Shown piece after piece: positions 13,619 through 25,143 of a DNA stretch of 64,000 nucleotides (position 1 is its first letter; the number at the start of each line of letters is the position of its first letter). A program made the position numbers and the translations under genes. Under the pieces are notes generated by a model, which saw only the letters and a program-made list of their open reading frames with translations, searched no databases and was not told the DNA's origin. This DNA comes from a virus (taxonomy: Duplodnaviria; Caudoviricetes), in IMG/VR virus record IMGVR_UViG_3300005937_000001, positions 1-64,000 of that record; one strand, given 5' to 3'.

Positions 13619-13731
13619 ATTTTGATAATTGGAACGCGGTCAGCAAGCGCATTGTCATCGGATTGATGGTGGCGTTCAGCGTGGCGATGATCTTTCTGTT
13701 CTTAGCGTTGGCGTTCACAAATGGTGACTGA
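13615..13731 (+). CDS. 38-aa single-TM peptide (not in ORF track)
   Basis: GTG start; IVIGLMVAFSVAMIFLFLALAF; stop overlaps the portal ATG. Confidence 0.5.
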   Translation: MNFDNWNAVSKRIVIGLMVAFSVAMIFLFLALAFTNGD

Positions 13732-15230
13732 TGGCATCACTGCTGCAATTTCCGCGCATACGCTTTCCGTTTCAGGATAGCTTCAAGAACCTGCTCGCCG
13801 GCTTCGGCATGCCTGGTCGCGACAAAGCCGCGACGCAGCAGTTCACGCTCAACCTGCTCGATCCAGTGCAATTGCACAACGCCTACCGCGGCGACTGGGT
13901 GAGCAGGAAGATTTGCGACATACCGCCGTTCGATGCATGCCGCGCCTGGCGTGAATGGCAAGCCGAGCAGGACCAGATCGAAAAGATTGAGAAGGCTGAG
14001 AAGGACTTCAACCTGCAGCACAAGCTGATGTGGACGCTATCGAAGGCGCGTCTCTACGGCGGCGCTGTGATGGTGATGGGGATTGAAGGCCAGAAGTTCG
14101 AGGATGAACTGGACGTTGAAAGCGTAGGCGAGGGCGATCTCAAGTTCATTCACTGCGTAACACGTTGGCAGATCAGCGCGGGCCCGTTGATGCGCGACAT
14201 CACCAGCCCATGGTTCGGTGAGCCAACCTACTACTACCGCACTAACTCACCAGTGCCCGATCCGCCTGGTGGCGTGCAGCCACCCGAGGGATCGAGCTTG
14301 GGTCATCAACCTGGTCAAGACCTGTGGATACATCCAAGCCGTGTCGTGCGCCTGATTGGCCTCGACTATCCCGACTGGGAGCAGGCGCCCGATCAGTGGG
14401 GCGACAGCGCGCTGCAGCCAGTGTTCGACGCCATCGCCAACGCTGGCCTGGTCTCCAGCTCGATTGCGCACATGATCAGCGAAGCCAAGCTCGATGTGAT
14501 CAAGGTGCCTGGCTTGATGGAGATGTTGTCGACCACCGAGGGTAGCTCGAAGGTGCTCGATCGCTTCAGCCAGGGCAATGCCGCGAAGAGTGTCGTCAAT
14601 GCCACGCTGCTCGACAGCACCGAGGAGTGGGAACGCATCCAGATCGCGTTCGCCGGCATGGACAACGTCATGTCGATGTACTTGATGATCGCAGCGGGGG
14701 CTGCGGATATCCCCGCGACGCGCTTGCTTGGACGCGCGCCCGCGGGAGAGAATGCGACTGGCGAAAGCGACATGCGCAACTACTATGATCGCCTGCAGGC
14801 CGATCAGAAGGTACGCATTCAGCCGGCACTCGCGCGCCTCGATGAGGTGCTGCTGCGCCACGTGTTCGGCGATCGCGACGAGGACATCTACTACGAATGG
14901 TCGCCGCTCTGGCAGCTCGACGAAGAGCAGAAGGCCGCGGTCGCGCTCGCGAAAGCGCAGGCACACAAGATCGACGTCGATGCTGGCCTGATCAATCCCG
15001 AGGTGTTGCGTGAAGCGCGCGCTAATCAACTGATCGAGGATGGGTTCTATCCTGGCATCGAGGCAGCGATCGACGAGTACGAGCTTGAGCCCGACGAGGA
15101 AGATGAACAAGCTCACGCTGCGCTCGATCTGAAACTGAAAGAGCAGACACTCACCAATCTGAAAAAGCCGCAGCCAATGCAGAAGCCTGGTGCGGCGCCG
15201 AGGCCTAAGCTGGCCTCGTTGCAGAAGTAA
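13731..15230 (+). CDS. portal protein (DUF1073 type)
   Basis: DSFKNLLAGFG..GRDK, AYRGDWVSRKICDIPPFDACRAWRE, ARLYGG, IHPSRVVR, AGAADIPATRLLG, SDMRNYYD; between terL and MuF. Confidence 0.9.
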   Translation: MASLLQFPRIRFPFQDSFKNLLAGFGMPGRDKAATQQFTLNLLDPVQLHNAYRGDWVSRKICDIPPFDACRAWREWQAEQDQIEKIEKAEKDFNLQHKLMWTLSKARLYGGAVMVMGIEGQKFEDELDVESVGEGDLKFIHCVTRWQISAGPLMRDITSPWFGEPTYYYRTNSPVPDPPGGVQPPEGSSLGHQPGQDLWIHPSRVVRLIGLDYPDWEQAPDQWGDSALQPVFDAIANAGLVSSSIAHMISEAKLDVIKVPGLMEMLSTTEGSSKVLDRFSQGNAAKSVVNATLLDSTEEWERIQIAFAGMDNVMSMYLMIAAGAADIPATRLLGRAPAGENATGESDMRNYYDRLQADQKVRIQPALARLDEVLLRHVFGDRDEDIYYEWSPLWQLDEEQKAAVALAKAQAHKIDVDAGLINPEVLREARANQLIEDGFYPGIEAAIDEYELEPDEEDEQAHAALDLKLKEQTLTNLKKPQPMQKPGAAPRPKLASLQK

Positions 15231-15763: not shown

Positions 15764-15982
15764 ATGATCCTCAAGCTCACCGATCCTGATGGCGGTCCAA
15801 TCTGGATCGTTGCTCGCTGGGTGACGCAGCTCAAGTTGCCGCCCCGCGGTCAATACTCCGAGCATGCGCGCACGCTTATCGTGCTTGGTGCACGCGAACA
15901 GGCTGTGCGCGAAACGCCTGAGGAGATCGTCAAGCTTTTGAAGGACAACGATGACGCTGGCGCAACTGTTCGACGCGCATAA
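15764..15982 (+). CDS. FlbD-like small phage protein
   Basis: MILKLTDPDGGPIWI...TLIVL...AVRETPEEIVKLL pattern. Confidence 0.6.
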   Translation: MILKLTDPDGGPIWIVARWVTQLKLPPRGQYSEHARTLIVLGAREQAVRETPEEIVKLLKDNDDAGATVRRA

Positions 15983-18900
15983 AGCACGCGATCCAACGCA
16001 AACGATCAAGCTGCGCAAAGCGTTTCGTGCCACTGCTAAGCTTCGCTTGCGCCAACTGCGTGCGGCCATGCGCGTCGCTGTGGTCGACCACAACTTGCTC
16101 AGCTACTCGACCCAGGGCGCACTCGCTTACGCGCCCGCGCACACGCGCCTGGAAGCGTTCGTCGGTTGGATCGAGGCGACTGGTGGGCAGTATCTACTCG
16201 GCTCTGACTGGGCGCGGCCTTTCATCGAGCGTGCCTGGCGCATGGGTGAAGCTAAGGCGGTGCGCGAGACTGGCAAGGCTGCTGGCCCCGACGAGTCCGA
16301 TGACCTGGTCGCACGGGCGCGCAACGAGATCACTGGCATTCTTGCTGCACTGGTGCAGCAGACCAGCCGGCAAGCGGCGAGCATCATCGCTCGTGGTACG
16401 CGTCGGCAACAAGCGTTGCGCGAGTTGTTCGCTGTGTTCGATCGAGTTGCGCTGCCGCGCCTGATCGCGGTGGCCGACGTTACGGTGATCAAGGCCTACA
16501 ACGAAGCCAAGTTGAATTGCTATGCCGCCGGCGGCATCAAGCACGTGGGCGTCCATGCTGAAACACTTCCTAACAATCATCGAACGACTCGCATGGATGC
16601 TGCTGATCGTGTTGCGACGCCGGAGGAGATACTTGCCGAGGAGGAAGAGCTTGTCGGCATCCTGACCGCCGGCGACGACAAGGTCTGTCAGCGCTGCGAG
16701 GACTGGGCAGAAGATTCGCCCTACGAGATCGAAGAGGTGCGTGACGTCTATCCACTGCACCCGCGCTGTCGCTGTGCAGTCTATCCATGGGAAGACCTGC
16801 GCTTCAAAGGTGAGGACAAGGAGTGGGAGGAAGAGAAGCACCCGCGCGTGGCTGCGGGCTCGCCTGAGGGCGGACGCTTCACGAGCTGGGGCGGTGCCGA
16901 GCACGGCGAAGAGGTTTCAGAGAAACAAGCTGCATCGGTCAAAGCGCTGGCCGAAGCGGTGCCAGGCCTGAAGAATTTCCTACCCTATATGGCGCCCGAT
17001 GAAGTCAATCGGGTGAAGAAGGCCAACGTCAAGCGCATGGTCGAGCTGTTCACCACGTTTCCGGTGGAAGCTGAGGAGATGGCCGCGGTTGCTTACTCTG
17101 GCGGCGCCAAGCGTGGTTGGTATCGCAAGAGCGCAAAGGCTTTGCTCGACGTGTTCGGTGCAGTCGACGCGCCGCGTTTTGCTTCGCTGCTGGCAGCGCT
17201 CTCGCCGCAGACTGGCGTCGAGGATAACGCGATCAATGCACTCAACACCTGGACCAACTGGGTGCGCGCTGGCCGGCCGACCGATCGTGACAGCATCGTC
17301 AAGGTACTCGGCCAGAGCGTGCAAGGTGAGAAAGGCGCCGAGAGCATCCTGCCTGCGTGGATCAACAACTCAGTCACCGCACTGAGCACGCCCGATCCCG
17401 AGGCGATCGTGCTGTCTGGCCCGAAGGTCGATTCGTTCGCCTACAATCTTCGCGACCACGTCAACGCGGTCACGCTCGACAGCTGGATGGCGAACTATCT
17501 CGGCATTAAGCAGGCACTGTTCGCACGGCGCCAGGCGGTGCCTGGTGTGCGACCAGGCAAGGGGCCGATGTACATCGCCACTGCGGCGATGACGCGACGA
17601 GCTGCTGAGATACTGACGCAACGCACCGGTGAGAAGTGGACGCCGGCAGAAATTCAAGAGACCATCTGGTCGTGGGCAAAGACGCTGTACGAACGCGCGA
17701 GCGCGGACAAAACCACAGTGGCGCAGCTGCTCGAAGCTGGCAGCGTCACGCACAAAGACATCGCCGACACGCCAGACTTTGCGATACTGTTCACGCAGAA
17801 CGTCTATCGCAAAATTCTCGAGGAAGGCGGCTATGGCAAGCAAGCGGCGGCGATTGCAGCAAGCAATCGAGAACCTGATCTCACTGCAGGAGGAAGAAGC
17901 AGCCTTACGTCAGCCGAAGGCTCAGGCATTCCTCAGGATGCTTTCACCCGTCACCTCCTCAAAGCCGCGGGGCGGCTCGACCTCCTCCGAGAAGAGCGAG
18001 CCAAGCGAAAAGCCGGAGAAGAAGAGGTAGACAGCCTCGACGCCTGGATCGAGTTCGAAGACTACGATCCTGACGAGCCACGCGATCCACTCGGCAAGTG
18101 GACCACTGGCGGTAGTGGGCATCCAGGCGCAGGCTACAGCGCCAGCGCTCGCATCGACAGCAAGGGCGTCATCCACACCTCGAACGTTTATGACGCGCAG
18201 CGCGCGCTGTTCGAAAACCGCAAGGTCGAGCTAAAGCAAATCAAGCAGGTTTCAACGCTGATTAAGCGCCTGGGTGAGACCGCAGCCGAGATGGCCGAGC
18301 ATGGCGAGAAGGCGCCGGTATTCAATCTCTGCAACGTCAGCGTCGAAGGCACCAACCTCTTTTGCTCCGAGCACAAGGGCATCCCGCGCATCAAGATGCC
18401 GGTGATTCCGCGCAAGCAGACCAAGGAGTTCATCAAGCACCTTGAGGCGCGCGGTTACAAAACCGAGAAGAGCACCGAGCGCGCTGATCACTTACGCGCC
18501 ACGCAAGACGAGATCGACGGCGCCAAGGTGGCGCAGTCAATGGCGCGCATCGATAGAGAAGGCTTCTACAAGCGCCTGGTGGTGTCGCGCGACGACTACA
18601 TCGTCGATGGCCATCACACCTGGGCGGCGCAGCTCGGTGTTGATGCGCGCGACGGCACGCTCAAAGGCGACAAGACGGTCAAGATCACGCGCGTCGACAT
18701 CGGCATCATTCAGCTGCTGCACGAAGCCAACGCTTGGACCACCAAGCAAGGCATCCAGCGCAAGGCGGCTGGTGATGCACTCGACTTCAATCCCGATCAG
18801 CCGCGCGTGCCCGCGGGTGAGAGCACTGGCGGTCAATGGACCAGTGGCGGCGGTGGCATCGAGCATGGAATGATCGAGGTGCCGGCGCGCACCTTCGTGG

Positions 18901-20732
18901 AGTCGCGCGACGTCTCGACCCGTCAACAGTTTCTCTCACCGCATCCTGCGGAAGAGCTGGGCCAGCACACGCTGCTGCTCAATCGTGAGGGCAACGTTGG
19001 CATCTCAATCGATCAGCACGGCGATGTGCAGAATGTGTTCAACAACGGCGGACCCAAAGGAGGTGCAGCAAAAGCGATGGTAGCAGCAATCGAGCACGGC
19101 GGCCGTACGCTCGACTGCTACGATGGGTTTTTACCTAGCTACTACGGCCAGTTCGGATTCAAAGAAACGCAAAGAATGAAGTTCAATCCGGCGTACGCAC
19201 CGCCAGGATGGGACTTTGCGAAATACGACAACCCCGATATTGTCTTCATGAGTTGGGGCGGCTATGTGCAGGGAGGCGAGCGTGAAGCGATTGCGCGCGC
19301 CTCCTCGCGCAAGGACTGGATCAAGGTTGAGAGGACGCAAAGCTATGGCGACGACTGGGATGCCGCAAAAGCCGCAAGCCGAGACGCAGCAGCAGTTGGA
19401 GCTGCAGTTCATCGAGGAGCTGGAGCAGCACCACGGCCGCAAACTCAGTCCGCAGGAAGCCGCGCTGGCTTTGGAGCAGGCGAAAGCTCTGGGGGAGATA
19501 AGCTCCTCCTAGTCTCCGAGCAGCCTGGCGCGGCCAAGCTCGACAAGTGGCAAGCGGAGATCAAGGCTCGACGCGACGAGAAAGAAAAAGCCGAGCAGTT
19601 CGGCGATCGCGAAGACGATCAGCTCGCCTACATGGCCAAGGCGCTGAAAGAGTACAGCGATATTGACCAGCTCGATGCGGGCCGTGCTGGCATCAACGTT
19701 GTCTACGGTGGGCCGCACGATAGCGACGAGACCAAGCTGCTCGCTGCTGTGCTCACTCGCTTCAACCCACGTCAAGGCGTCGCCCGCATCACGCTCTCTG
19801 GTGGCATCGATGCCGACGCGCACATCAAGGCACTGCAACAAGTCGTAGCACGTTACGGGTCTCAGGCTGAACGCATCGAGGCGCAAATCTGGGGTGACGA
19901 CCTAGAGAGCGCAATCATTTACGAGAAGGCTGGCTTCAAGATCAGCGGCACCACCGATCTTGGGATGACGCGGCTAGTTTATGGCAAGGAAGGACCCACC
20001 GCACGCGAGCAGGAGGCGGCAGAGAAGCTCGCGGTCGCGCGGAAGAACGAAGTTGAGTCGAAGGCTCGCATCGCTGCCGCGCAGCTCGACTTCAACCCCG
20101 ACAACGTCGAGTTCACTGACGCCGACGACACGTTCGAACTTAATGGCGTGAAGATGCATTTCGCCGGCTCCTACACGCGCGGGTCTGCGAAGGTCAAAAT
20201 CTATCATCAGCATGTGGCGCTTGCCAGCGTCGCCGGCGTCACTGCGCATGAGATCGGACACCGCAAGCTCGACGCCTTGCGCGCACGCTACCGCGACGAA
20301 TACCGCGACATGCTGGCCGAGCCTGGTGCGCCGCCTGATCCACAAGGCGAACGTTGGTGGCAACAGCGCGGCGGCCACGAGACCGTCATGATGGCGAGTG
20401 GTGAGCTGCGCGAACCCTACGCCTCAAAATATCCGGTCTATCATCAGTGGGAGACCAACGTTGAACTTAAGCGTGACAAGCTGCGCAAGAGCGACGGTGT
20501 CACCGACTACTCGAAGGAATACTGGAAGGGCTTCGAGAAGGGCGAGATACCGATCGACAAGGCGATGCACGAGACCATCGCCGAGATGACGCGGATCAAG
20601 TTCGAGACTGGCAAGCTGCCAGGCTCACCCGAGTGGAAGACGCTGTACAAAATGATCGAAGAGAACTGGTCGAAGATGTCACCGCTTGAACGTGCAGTCG
20701 AACAGCACAGCAGTGAAAAGGCGAGATGGTGA
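15951..20732 (+). CDS. MuF (Mu gpF / SPP1 gp7-like) minor head protein fused to several enzymatic modules (polyvalent protein, 1593 aa)
   Basis: ARDPTQT N-terminus and TAGDDKVCQRC...HPRCRC MuF core; then a WY...AALSPQ...GPKVDSF...VTLDSW module, ParB-like ATQDEI...DGHH, GNAT-like LDCYDGFL..YY.QFGF, a second GNAT-like IYEKAGF, and zincin HEIGH...HETIAE; between portal and protease. Confidence 0.85.
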   Translation: MTLAQLFDAHKARDPTQTIKLRKAFRATAKLRLRQLRAAMRVAVVDHNLLSYSTQGALAYAPAHTRLEAFVGWIEATGGQYLLGSDWARPFIERAWRMGEAKAVRETGKAAGPDESDDLVARARNEITGILAALVQQTSRQAASIIARGTRRQQALRELFAVFDRVALPRLIAVADVTVIKAYNEAKLNCYAAGGIKHVGVHAETLPNNHRTTRMDAADRVATPEEILAEEEELVGILTAGDDKVCQRCEDWAEDSPYEIEEVRDVYPLHPRCRCAVYPWEDLRFKGEDKEWEEEKHPRVAAGSPEGGRFTSWGGAEHGEEVSEKQAASVKALAEAVPGLKNFLPYMAPDEVNRVKKANVKRMVELFTTFPVEAEEMAAVAYSGGAKRGWYRKSAKALLDVFGAVDAPRFASLLAALSPQTGVEDNAINALNTWTNWVRAGRPTDRDSIVKVLGQSVQGEKGAESILPAWINNSVTALSTPDPEAIVLSGPKVDSFAYNLRDHVNAVTLDSWMANYLGIKQALFARRQAVPGVRPGKGPMYIATAAMTRRAAEILTQRTGEKWTPAEIQETIWSWAKTLYERASADKTTVAQLLEAGSVTHKDIADTPDFAILFTQNVYRKILEEGGYGKQAAAIAASNREPDLTAGGRSSLTSAEGSGIPQDAFTRHLLKAAGRLDLLREERAKRKAGEEEVDSLDAWIEFEDYDPDEPRDPLGKWTTGGSGHPGAGYSASARIDSKGVIHTSNVYDAQRALFENRKVELKQIKQVSTLIKRLGETAAEMAEHGEKAPVFNLCNVSVEGTNLFCSEHKGIPRIKMPVIPRKQTKEFIKHLEARGYKTEKSTERADHLRATQDEIDGAKVAQSMARIDREGFYKRLVVSRDDYIVDGHHTWAAQLGVDARDGTLKGDKTVKITRVDIGIIQLLHEANAWTTKQGIQRKAAGDALDFNPDQPRVPAGESTGGQWTSGGGGIEHGMIEVPARTFVESRDVSTRQQFLSPHPAEELGQHTLLLNREGNVGISIDQHGDVQNVFNNGGPKGGAAKAMVAAIEHGGRTLDCYDGFLPSYYGQFGFKETQRMKFNPAYAPPGWDFAKYDNPDIVFMSWGGYVQGGEREAIARASSRKDWIKVERTQSYGDDWDAAKAASRDAAAVGAAVHRGAGAAPRPQTQSAGSRAGFGAGESSGGDKLLLVSEQPGAAKLDKWQAEIKARRDEKEKAEQFGDREDDQLAYMAKALKEYSDIDQLDAGRAGINVVYGGPHDSDETKLLAAVLTRFNPRQGVARITLSGGIDADAHIKALQQVVARYGSQAERIEAQIWGDDLESAIIYEKAGFKISGTTDLGMTRLVYGKEGPTAREQEAAEKLAVARKNEVESKARIAAAQLDFNPDNVEFTDADDTFELNGVKMHFAGSYTRGSAKVKIYHQHVALASVAGVTAHEIGHRKLDALRARYRDEYRDMLAEPGAPPDPQGERWWQQRGGHETVMMASGELREPYASKYPVYHQWETNVELKRDKLRKSDGVTDYSKEYWKGFEKGEIPIDKAMHETIAEMTRIKFETGKLPGSPEWKTLYKMIEENWSKMSPLERAVEQHSSEKARW
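17833..18030 (+). CDS. nested +1-frame ORF inside the MuF polyprotein (65 aa)
   Basis: AGGAAGG RBS; MASKRRRLQQAIENLISLQEEEAALRQPKAQAFLRML...; host-frame codons over the first half are unusually A/T-ending. Confidence 0.5.
   Translation: MASKRRRLQQAIENLISLQEEEAALRQPKAQAFLRMLSPVTSSKPRGGSTSSEKSEPSEKPEKKR
19345..19512 (+). CDS. nested +1-frame ORF inside the MuF polyprotein (55 aa)
   Basis: GAGGA RBS 9 nt before ATG; MATTGMPQKPQAETQQQLELQFIEELEQHHGRKLSPQEAALALEQAKALGEISSS; +1 frame is CAG/CTG/GAG/TTC/ATC-rich while the host frame is GCA/GGA/GCT low-complexity. Confidence 0.65.
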   Translation: MATTGMPQKPQAETQQQLELQFIEELEQHHGRKLSPQEAALALEQAKALGEISSS

Positions 20733-22007: not shown

Positions 22008-23270
22008 ATGCCGCTCACAGCGAAGGGTGAAAAAATTCTCGCCGCGATGATCGAAGAATACGGCGAAGAGGAAGGCAAGCGCATTTTCTACGCCAGCAAG
22101 AACGCCGGCAAGATCACTGGAGTTGATTGCGACATGAACGACGCATTGATTCTCGAGTTCGACGACCGCGCGAACGCAGCGATCATCGACGGCGGTTACA
22201 TGCGCGCGATGCCACGCATAGCACGTACCGGCATTCAGATTTATCACGGCAAGGAGTGCGGTCGCCCTGAGATGGAAAAGGTGCGCGTGTTCCGCCCGCA
22301 AGATGCAGTGTTCGGTAACGCCGCAGTGAAATCCTACACGCACCTACCCGTCACGCTCGATCATCCTGGCGTGTCCGTCGATTCCACCAACTGGAAAAAG
22401 TACGCAGTCGGCGAGACCGGCGAGGACGTACTACGCGATGGCGGCACCGTGCGCGTGCCGATGATGCTGCGCGATGCCACTGCAATCGCTGCAGTGAAGG
22501 ACGGCAAGAACCAAATCAGTGTTGGCTATTCGTGTGACCTCGAATGGGTCGATGGCATCACGGAAGACGGCCAGAAGTACGACGCGGTGCAGAAGAACAT
22601 CCAGGGCAACCACGTGGCCATCGTTTCCACCGCACGCGGTGGCCCTGAACTGAAATTCGGCGATAGAGGAGATGACGTTATGGCCGAACTCAAGACACTC
22701 ATGATCGACGGCATCGCGTGCCAAATGACCGACACTGCTTCGGTGCTCGTGCAGAAGCTGCTCGACAATTTCGAGGAGTTCAAAAAGAAGAAAAAGAAGG
22801 AAGAGGAGGCCGAAGAGGACGGGCTCAAGAGGGATATCGCAGCCAAGGACGCTGCGATCGTCGTCAAGGATAAGGAGATCGTCGAGCTGCAAGCGAAGCT
22901 TACTGATGCACTCAAGCCCGAGCGCACCCGCGATGCAGCCATCAAGCTGCTTGCCGTCATCGACAAAGCGCAGAAAGTCACCGGCAAGGCCATCAAGTTG
23001 GACAGCGTCACCGATGCTGCAAACGTCATGCGTGAGGTTGTCAACGGCAAGCTTGGTGATGCAGCCAAGGGCTGGGATGACAACAAGATCGACGCTGCTT
23101 TCGACGCCATCACGCTGACGACGTCCAGCAAGCCGATCAACGACGCGATCAACGCATTCAATCGGCCGGCCTTCCACCATCCAAGCGGCACGACTGATCC
23201 GCGTGACCAGGCCTACTACGACTCTGTCAAAGAGTTGGAAAACGCTTGGAAGAAGCCGGTAGCTTCGTAA
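22008..23270 (+). CDS. DUF2213-type prohead protease / scaffold
   Basis: PRIARTGIQIY, FRPQDAVF, SYTHLPVTLDHP, QISVGYSC, QKNIQGNHVAIVSTARGG; C-terminal helical scaffold; extra N-terminal MPLTAKGEKIL...FYASKNAGKITGVD micro-domain. Confidence 0.9.
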   Translation: MPLTAKGEKILAAMIEEYGEEEGKRIFYASKNAGKITGVDCDMNDALILEFDDRANAAIIDGGYMRAMPRIARTGIQIYHGKECGRPEMEKVRVFRPQDAVFGNAAVKSYTHLPVTLDHPGVSVDSTNWKKYAVGETGEDVLRDGGTVRVPMMLRDATAIAAVKDGKNQISVGYSCDLEWVDGITEDGQKYDAVQKNIQGNHVAIVSTARGGPELKFGDRGDDVMAELKTLMIDGIACQMTDTASVLVQKLLDNFEEFKKKKKKEEEAEEDGLKRDIAAKDAAIVVKDKEIVELQAKLTDALKPERTRDAAIKLLAVIDKAQKVTGKAIKLDSVTDAANVMREVVNGKLGDAAKGWDDNKIDAAFDAITLTTSSKPINDAINAFNRPAFHHPSGTTDPRDQAYYDSVKELENAWKKPVAS

Positions 23271-24192: not shown

Positions 24193-25143
24193 ATGTCGTT
24201 CAATATGTTTGCCGCAGATGCTCAGCAGCAAGCCCTTGGTTTCCTGGTGAGCCAGACCACCTACATCGAACCGCTCGTGTACAAAATTCAGTACCCAGAG
24301 CTGAATTATCGGGACCTTGTCCCGATCGATGCGAGCGCTAGCGAGTGGGCGAAGAGCGTTACTTTTTTCAGCGTTGACATGGTTGGTCGCGCTGATTGGT
24401 TCAACCATCTCGCACGCGACGTCCCGCTCGCTGACATCACTCGCGGCCGGCATGAGATCGGCATCGAGATGGCAGCCGTCGGATATCGCTACACGCTCGA
24501 AGAACTCGGGCAGGCGATGATGGTGCCGAACGTGAACTTGACGACGGATCGCGCGGCTGCGGCCAAGCGGGCGTACGAAGAGTTCGTCTACAACAAGTGT
24601 CTGTGGGGTGCGGTCGAGAAGAACTGGCTCGGCTTGCTCAACCACTCCGCGCCGACAGTGATCAACGCCGGCGCCACGTGGGCTTTCCAGCTCGCGCAGT
24701 CACCGGTGGGCACAACGCCCATCCTCAACGACATCAACGGCGTACTAACCAACATCTGGCAGGCATCGTTGACGATCGAGACCGCTGACACGTTGTTGCT
24801 CCCGCTCAAGAGCATGGCGCAGCTCGGCATCACGCAGCTCCCGAACACGACCATGAATCTCATGGAGTGGATCAAGCGCAACAATATCTACGCACAGACT
24901 ACCGGCACCCCTCTCAACATCACCGGTGTGCGTGGTCTTGACACTGCAGGCGCGAGCGGTAACGCGCGTGCGGTCGCGTATCGCAAATCACCAGACATCG
25001 TGAAGATGCACATCCCGATGCCGCATCGCTTCCTGCCTGTGTGGCAGACAGGGCCGATGGTGTTTGACATCCCTGGCATCTTCCGCCTCGCCGGCGTCGA
25101 GATCAGGCGTCCAGGTGCCTTCCGCTATCTGGATGGCATCTAA
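24193..25143 (+). CDS. major capsid protein (DUF2184 family, HK97 fold)
   Basis: ALGFLVSQTTYIEPLVY..QYPEL, YRYTLEEL..A, G..GLLN, RAVAYRKSPDIVKMHIPMP, AGVEIRRP.AFRYLDGI; strong ATAGGAG RBS. Confidence 0.9.
   Translation: MSFNMFAADAQQQALGFLVSQTTYIEPLVYKIQYPELNYRDLVPIDASASEWAKSVTFFSVDMVGRADWFNHLARDVPLADITRGRHEIGIEMAAVGYRYTLEELGQAMMVPNVNLTTDRAAAAKRAYEEFVYNKCLWGAVEKNWLGLLNHSAPTVINAGATWAFQLAQSPVGTTPILNDINGVLTNIWQASLTIETADTLLLPLKSMAQLGITQLPNTTMNLMEWIKRNNIYAQTTGTPLNITGVRGLDTAGASGNARAVAYRKSPDIVKMHIPMPHRFLPVWQTGPMVFDIPGIFRLAGVEIRRPGAFRYLDGI

Follow-up and report, generated by a model that had tools for sequence, protein, structure and literature searches.

A short conserved peptide that leads cargo modules in phage head polyproteins

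Three tag copies in a MuF-anchored polyprotein

The DNA analysed here, hereafter the window, comprises the first 64,000 nucleotides of IMG/VR record IMGVR_UViG_3300005937_000001 (Duplodnaviria; Caudoviricetes), the record of a soil phage, 87,424 bp long and with an estimated completeness of 98%. A single open reading frame (ORF) at 15951-20732 (plus strand, as are all features of this gene and its downstream neighbours given below) encodes P0002, a MuF-anchored polyvalent head protein of 1593 amino acids (aa), with the portal gene (13731-15230; PF06381) upstream and DUF2213, cement and major capsid genes on the other side. Our subject is a short peptide, the tag, that occurs three times in this protein. 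Translation of 16812-18857 yields, exactly and in the frame of the 1593-aa ORF, the three related peptides that the original prediction, made from the letters alone, had quoted as opening successive modules. Tag 1 (16812-16913; 29.9 bits with a tag hidden Markov model (HMM), E = 2.1e-11 in the genome search) is of a W...H-P-R, long-loop, ...G-R-F-T flavour; tag 2 (18051-18137; 34.7 bits, E = 7.1e-13) is of the short-loop flavour Y-D-P-D-E-P-R-D-x-x-G-K-W-T; and tag 3 (18780-18875; 39.2 bits, E = 2.3e-14) joins F-N-P-D-Q-P-R through a long loop to ...G-Q-W-T. The HMM, built from 19 tags and run on the six frames of the window and on the whole record, matches only these three places and finds no fourth. 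Likewise, a loose regular expression (PR, 2-10 residues, G[RKQ][WFY]) has only three in-frame sites in the protein, and its five matches in other frames of the window are scattered and mostly contain stop codons. Common to the three copies is the motif aromatic-[D/N]-[P/E]-x-x-[Q/E/H]-P-R-x(3-10)-G-[K/R/Q]-[W/F]-T-x-GGG; the earlier consensus, which opened with Asp and an aromatic residue, fits tags 2 and 3, whereas tag 1 has E-W in place of D-W and one more residue before P-R.

Between and beyond the tags lie five cargo modules behind one structural anchor. The MuF/head-morphogenesis anchor (aa 1-287, 15951-16811; phrog_758 head morphogenesis, E = 7e-11 over aa 10-279) is predicted confidently by AlphaFold2 (AF2) over aa 20-200 and 250-280, with a predicted local distance difference test score (pLDDT) of ~90. 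Within the MuF region AF2 also places a low-confidence acidic loop (aa 206-244, 16596-16700), which holds an Asp-Ala (D-A) dipeptide at aa 216 and a Glu-rich run and may be an extra processing site or a flexible hinge. Cargo module 1, behind tag 1, spans ~16914-18038 (high-scoring segment pairs (HSPs) with homologues cover ~aa 320-700) and has a DUF7178 core at 17112-17672 (PF23802, E = 1.8e-8, aa 388-574; phrog_3842). Tag 2 leads cargo module 2 (18138-18773), a ParB/Srx-like module with DGHH at 18606-18617 (phrog_2859, E = 2.8e-24, and a weak match to the ParB-like phrog_8071) that is seen in 49 other proteins, in other positions. Cargo module 3, behind tag 3 (18876-19352; phrog_2563, E = 8e-14; HSPs ~aa 944-1184), is a GNAT-like candidate, judged only by the Joint Genome Institute (JGI) names of its homologues P0012 and P0013 (GNAT acetyltransferases). 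Cargo module 4 (19521-20084) matches no family in Pfam and PHROG scans and occurs apart from its neighbour modules in P0014 (HSP 1186-1330). The C-terminal, zincin-like module (20103-20729) carries HEIGH at 20247-20261 (aa 1433-1437), an HExxH motif read from the sequence, yet aa 1374-1593 have no Pfam, PHROG or NCBIfam match; the module recurs in P0003, P0004, P0018 and P0057. P0002 has the features of a polyvalent protein: at least two unrelated effector-type domains, all five cargo modules (including the zincin-like one) also occurring separately in other proteins, and a structural anchor (phrog_758) encoded among head genes, with portal, DUF2213, cement and capsid genes flanking it.

That each cargo module carries a tag, as first proposed, proved too strong a wording, for three of the five cargo junctions carry a real tag and two are untagged. 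One of these is an Ala/Gly-rich stretch (aa ~1135-1190, 19353-19520) with no HMM match, D-A at aa 1137 and 1145 and HSP breakpoints at ~aa 1180-1186; it is also untagged in P0003, the closest relative, although in P0004 this position is occupied by a full tag. At the other, the LDFNPD that had been pointed out ahead of the peptidase module is indeed present (20085-20102) and is the same hexapeptide that starts tag 3, without the PR...G-x-W half and with no score from the HMM. This hexapeptide is kept ahead of the peptidase module in the orthologues P0003 and P0004, and in P0018 the same module is preceded by a full tag; LDFNPD may be what remains of a decayed tag, namely its N-terminal half, or else a piece of the peptidase module.

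Anatomy, spread and position of the tag

Alignment of 794 distinct tags on their P-R, a dipeptide that 794 of the 873 tags detected carry, confines the information to positions -6 to +13 around it, with 2-4 bits per position and the G at +5 conserved in 99%. The core, about 20 residues long, reads [K/W]-[Y/F]-[D/E/S]-[P/S/E]-x-[Q/H/E]-P-R-[D]-x-x-G-[R/K]-[W/F]-T-x-G-G-G and leads into a Gly-rich run; its flanks are featureless Ala/Gly-rich sequence. Two flavours co-vary across the core, one with upstream W, H-P-R, often a long loop, and downstream F, the other with upstream F/Y, E/Q-P-R and downstream W (F/Y/H...W 50, W...F 22, W...W 2). AF2 of aa 690-985, from 29 aligned sequences, gives the ParB-like module a pLDDT of ~80-97, tag 2 43-58 and tag 3 36-55, and AF2 of the MuF domain with tag 1 gives ~90 and 26-50, respectively. 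Low pLDDT beside confident modules indicates that the tag is not part of the module fold, and on these predictions it is an intrinsically disordered short linear motif. Two chemical readings of the core were set aside: self-cleavage at Asp-Pro is ruled out by the W-D-E-x-K-H-P-R flavour, which has no Asp-Pro, and a link between the invariant Arg and Arg-specific ADP-ribosylation is unsupported, as most tagged proteins have no ADP-ribosyltransferase (ART). A search of PDB sequences with tag 1 gave a sole match, to tectonin-like lectin repeats (E = 0.046), which we attribute to chance.

The tag is widespread. At a permissive threshold the HMM finds 98 instances in 39 of 70 homologues of the polyprotein, and a profile search of 1.84 billion representative proteins (50% clusters) returns 2664 at E ≤ 1e-3 and 427 at E ≤ 1e-10, with up to 21 matched tag stretches in one protein. 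The 7334-aa P0074 (21 tag stretches) and the 5313-aa P0075 (17) lie on one 409,570-bp NCBI contig, possibly a phage or element of very large size whose cargo polyproteins are extreme. A back-translated exact DNA pattern has at least 120 matches in bacterial genomes and metagenome-assembled genomes (MAGs); among the matches listed, record titles name Alphaproteobacteria, Mycobacterium and other actinomycetes, Bacillota, Gemmata and other planctomycetes, Opitutales, Nitrospinota and Terriglobus, and the cultured strains include Afipia clevelandensis ATCC 49720 and Goodfellowiella coeruleoviolacea DSM 43935; Bradyrhizobium sp. BRP22 is another strain with a match. A tblastn search of plasmids with the tags gave no matches. 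Pfam analysis of 40 tagged proteins identifies ADP-ribosyltransferases, Zeta toxin, DUF7178, MuF, 2'-5' RNA ligase, Acb1, InPase, NUDIX and the XkdF protease, a domain set that corresponds to the effector repertoire of phage polyvalent proteins in passages of Iyer et al. 2017 (PMC5512222).

An expected tie to DUF2213/DUF1073 heads does not hold, since locus L004 pairs the tag with an HK97-type S78 protease, a PF05065 capsid and a PF04860 portal. On this IMG/VR contig (L004:7764-11159) one 1131-aa ORF comprises a tag, a ParB-like cargo module, an S78 prohead protease and an HK97-type capsid domain, the cargo being fused ahead of protease and capsid. The tagged protein P0010 carries a precomputed Pfam match to PF05136. 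Nocardia phage P3.1 is a possible cultured test case: its QSL67859.1 (L136:4986-5696), a 236-aa basic protein annotated 'capsid maturation protease' and encoded between portal and capsid genes with an M67 metallopeptidase gene after it, starts with a weak in-frame tag, K-F-N-P-x-Q-P-R-D-x-x-G-R-W (8.8 bits). Matches of tblastn in Pseudomonas phages were rejected, being antisense to an annotated MuF gene and reaching only 4 bits by HMM. Gp60 of Pseudomonas phage H66 (L001) and a 3125-aa protein of Limnohabitans phage DC33 (L010) share single modules with tagged proteins and have no tag, so for these giant virion proteins other junction solutions must exist. The filing of DC33 under Inoviridae, at 39 kb and with a giant protein, looks like an error of taxonomy.

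Positional bias in other proteins, on which the original prediction had been staked beforehand, is strong: tags gather at the N-terminal edge of modules and proteins and are near-absent at C-termini. Of 186 tagged proteins, which together hold 836 tags, 39% have a first tag that starts no more than 30 aa from the N-terminus and 56% one no more than 60 aa from it, and only 3% have a last tag that ends as close as 60 aa to the C-terminus; the median tag-to-tag spacing, 247 aa, is domain-sized. A second sample, 85 ORFs found in bacterial genomes through a single DNA pattern, consists nearly all of one-tag proteins, and among the matches listed none has a tag closer than 40 codons to the stop, the median distance to it being 187 codons; the same absence was recorded for 75 prophage ORFs. 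Single-module prophage proteins open directly with the tag, which in L019 and L028 stands at residues 5-6 of the ORF. L019:3487-5928, from a Mycobacterium sp. MAG contig (DASTKA010000867.1), holds a standalone MuF-like gene (weak PF04233 match, E = 1.1e-5, below the curated cut-off), a gap of ~40 nucleotides (nt) and then a 468-aa ORF whose tag lies at residue 5. L019 thus has the fusion of the window divided exactly ahead of the tag, which stays with the cargo. At L009 the order is portal, standalone MuF-like gene (phrog_324) and a 1854-aa polyprotein with a tag at ~aa 23, and tags also occur behind portals and ahead of protease-capsid fusions. L046:373-1743, on a Bacillota MAG contig (JAKQFQ010000457.1), has tandem ORFs of 165, 151 and 144 aa, each tagged in its first 13 residues and differing in their bodies, and resembles a row of cargo or toxin cassettes that each bear the leader tag. 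All three window copies are internal, whereas the 39-56% just given are N-terminal in proteins elsewhere. The tag leads modules rather than linking them.

A proposed cargo leader and its alternatives

N-terminal bias, together with effector-type modules beside head genes, is better matched by a portable leader or address than by a plain linker, and of the roles first proposed for the tag (a portable packaging, processing or ejection address) an address role is the one we favour. The tag probably labels proteins that are carried in the capsid. From its motif, distribution, position, predicted disorder and protein-level conservation we infer binding, loading and cleavage along the following lines. 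The unit would be an N-terminal leader (the tag), a Gly-rich spacer and an effector module, exchangeable as a whole and travelling inside the heads of tailed phages. As a recognition peptide, the leader would bind some conserved part of the procapsid during assembly and so have any sequence behind it loaded as head cargo; it may be handled at ejection too. Such units could stand as separate genes or be strung behind a head anchor, which is MuF here and elsewhere a portal or a protease-capsid fusion. In the strung forms the maturation protease would probably cut a few residues upstream of each leader, at Asp-Ala-like sites in the lineage of the window phage, and the cuts would free leader-bearing modules inside the capsid, each with the tag as its new N-terminus. 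We stand evenly balanced on this reading, in which the tag is a cargo leader or address recognised at loading, at ejection or at both, with upstream cuts in polyproteins. Its boldest extension seems doubtful to us, although possible: a near-universal capsid address shared by unrelated tailed-phage lineages across many phyla, in which a 20-residue peptide would suffice for loading and delivery and the two flavours would read two receptor variants.

The upstream cuts are suggested by D-A dipeptides. Asp-containing stretches had been noted ahead of the tags and are present; they constitute an element of their own, specific to one clade, that adjoins the tag on the outside and is D-A in most cases. 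For the clade of 14 proteins that share the MuF domain of P0002, D-A falls in the 12 residues upstream of 18 of 32 tags (56%), compared with 8.8% of windows elsewhere in the same proteins (p = 1.4e-11), although the members are related and the tags not fully independent; D-[A/G/S] precedes 23 of the 32. Outside the clade (732 tags), upstream D-A occurs at 7%, equal to background. In P0002, candidate protease sites of this kind lie at aa 697-698 (18039-18044), six residues before the aromatic residue of tag 2, and at aa 942-943 (18774-18779), three residues before that of tag 3; a further D-A stands just after LDFNPD (aa 1390). The DUF2213 protein (22008-23270; PF09979, E = 5e-49), the presumed prohead protease and scaffold, has 12 D-A where 4.9 are expected (p = 0.0015), with eight in aa 281-379 (22830-23270) of its D-A-rich, scaffold-like C-terminal part, and the major capsid protein (24193-25143; PF09950, E = 2e-67) has D-A at aa 9-10, within the stretch 24193-24225 that encodes its N-terminus, ...F-A-A-D-A-Q-Q. 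The pattern in these two head proteins is consistent with an Asp-specific head protease and, taken with the D-A before tags, fits a protease that cuts D-A-like sites; it suggests that cleavage would fall just before the tags. The literature searched holds no documentation of the cleavage specificity of DUF2213 proteins.

The same sites raise the alternative that the tag is only a recognition or cleavage site, for the prohead protease or for a polyvalent zincin, which splits polyproteins into enzymes and has no address role. Tags do sit at module junctions with a candidate D-A site adjoining, P0002 ends in a HEIGH module, and passages of Iyer et al. 2017 (PMC5512222) predict that built-in zincins process polyvalent proteins. 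Cleavage alone is nevertheless insufficient to account for tags at the extreme N-terminus of single-module proteins (L046, L019, L028), where a cut frees nothing useful, or for their company with differing head types and proteases (DUF2213 in the window, S78 in L004, XkdF fusions). Furthermore, this zincin-like module is present in only 4 of ~40 tag-bearing homologues, no consistent P1-type residue runs through the conserved core of the two flavours, and the clade-specific D-A falls outside that core. We consider a pure cleavage site unlikely.

Rather less probable in our estimation is a tag that acts mainly at or after ejection, whether by bringing the protein N-terminus first into the portal-tail channel or through recognition inside the host cell, for instance so that a co-injected zincin can release the module. 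An N-terminal position and a poly-Gly spacer would suit threading, as would predicted disorder, and the modules are counter-defence or toxin enzymes that need to reach the host. The present data do not separate such a role from loading; standalone tagged proteins, however, would still need to enter the capsid, and the tag is their sole common feature.

Module exchange bears on an improbable alternative, in which the tag is chiefly a recombination joint for cassette swaps, like the VENN boundary of CdiA toxins, and has no protein function of its own. When the polyprotein is compared with its 70 homologues, HSP ends cluster at aa 300-330, 700-725, 940-990 and ~1180 and pile up at tags, and modules recur in other orders and partnerships; in P0013, for instance, the module that follows tag 3 stands before the ParB-like module. 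The tag class ahead of the ParB-like module is more uniform (23/36 in one class) than the class behind it, which weakly suggests that a tag and its downstream module travel together. Clustering of modules cut at tags collapsed to one single-linkage cluster and was dropped. At the codon level, 9 of 21 same-residue pairs among the three window tags are identical, against 7.9 expected from the codon usage of the gene, and their longest common nucleotide run is 9 nt. Codon identity so near expectation places conservation in the window at the protein rather than the DNA level, and the aromatic residue, P-R, G, W/F and T are kept across phyla of differing base composition. Excess codon identity between tags does occur at some other loci (12/13 at L002; 25 against 16.8 expected at L005), and looks like recent duplication. 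A pure recombination joint is insufficient to explain residues conserved without their codons, nor does it account for tags at true N-termini. A passive flexible linker, whose similarity would come from composition or recent internal duplication, can be discounted despite Ala/Gly-rich flanks and predicted disorder, being excluded by the conservation itself (2-4 bits per position, with G at +5 at 99%), by thousands of unrelated proteins that carry the tag and by codon differences among the three window copies.

Several points weigh against the leader reading itself. With MuF already anchoring the chain, internal address tags look redundant, and the two untagged junctions of P0002 show that a tag is not obligatory for a fused module. 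AF2 gave no docking of tag 1 onto MuF in cis, with a shallow alignment and single-chain folding. The relatedness of the clade proteins tempers the D-A enrichment behind their 32 tags, and across the whole polyprotein D-A is not enriched (15 against 12.8 expected). Finally, tblastn of the tags against 50,697 cultured-phage records found no convincing copy except the weak N-terminal match in Nocardia phage P3.1.

Enzymes carried in phage heads disarm host defences once the DNA enters, and to our knowledge the way in which such proteins are selected for packaging has been worked out for a few model phages only. If the leader reading is true, injected effectors could be listed from sequence in metagenomes, the plugging of new effector modules into head proteins would be explained, a small tag would be at hand for loading chosen proteins into phage particles, and the predicted processing of polyvalent proteins would become directly testable.

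Comparison with known systems

P0002 resembles the polyvalent proteins in passages of Iyer, Burroughs, Anand, de Souza and Aravind 2017 (PMC5512222) in its MuF anchor, unrelated effectors, location among head genes and, putatively, a zincin-like peptidase, and tagged proteins share the domain repertoire of polyvalent proteins and MuF toxins (ART, Zeta toxin, InPase, DUF7178). The tag has a wider range, which takes in standalone single-module proteins as well as portal and protease-capsid fusions. Term searches reveal no conserved leader or junction peptide in the text of Iyer et al., where 'motif' refers to catalytic motifs, or in that of Jamet et al. 2017 (PMC5576092) on MuF polymorphic toxins; the MuF and pre-toxin passages of Zhang et al. 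2012 (PMC3482391) mention other pre-toxin domains and no such peptide, and the single passage on the polyvalent protein gp47 in a 2026 study of the phi24B virion describes none. Full-text literature searches, which leave most subscription journals outside their coverage, returned no published description, and the tag is apparently undescribed so far.

In phage T4, a capsid-targeting sequence (CTS) lies at the N-terminus of the internal proteins IPI-III and of Alt and is removed by the gp21 prohead protease. The original prediction compared the tag with this sequence, and the analogy of role stands, although sequence and cleavage-site features are not shared. Both are short peptides on otherwise unrelated proteins, N-terminal in T4 and in many of the tagged proteins, which in the case of the tag would end up in the head interior; protease sites, for the tag candidate ones, adjoin, and both are portable in principle. 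The T4-type site [LIV]-x-E, by contrast, shows no enrichment over the 12 residues that precede tags (6% in the clade, 14% elsewhere, 13% in the background), the tag is repeated inside polyproteins, and it spans many phage lineages and bacterial phyla where the CTS belongs to one phage group. The putative cut, moreover, is upstream, so that the tag would stay on the cargo, whereas the CTS is removed.

Pre-toxin motifs (VENN of CdiA, PT-TG and DPxGL of Rhs, in passages of PMC3482391) likewise are short, mark the start of a variable module and serve as points of exchange. They stand in single copy before the C-terminal toxin of secreted proteins, whereas the tag repeats before every kind of module and its copies in the window show no homogenisation at the DNA level. 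Neither the whole protein nor its pieces matched any pre-toxin Pfam family, even at E ≤ 1.

Encapsulin cargo-loading peptides, which are usually C-terminal, direct unrelated enzymes into a shell of HK97 fold by way of a flexible tether rich in Gly, Ala and Pro. Their placement and sequence differ from those of the tag, for which binding to a capsid protein is only putative. The likeness lies in the design, a short conserved peptide on a flexible tether, here a core of ~20 residues with pLDDT < 60 and a Gly-rich run.

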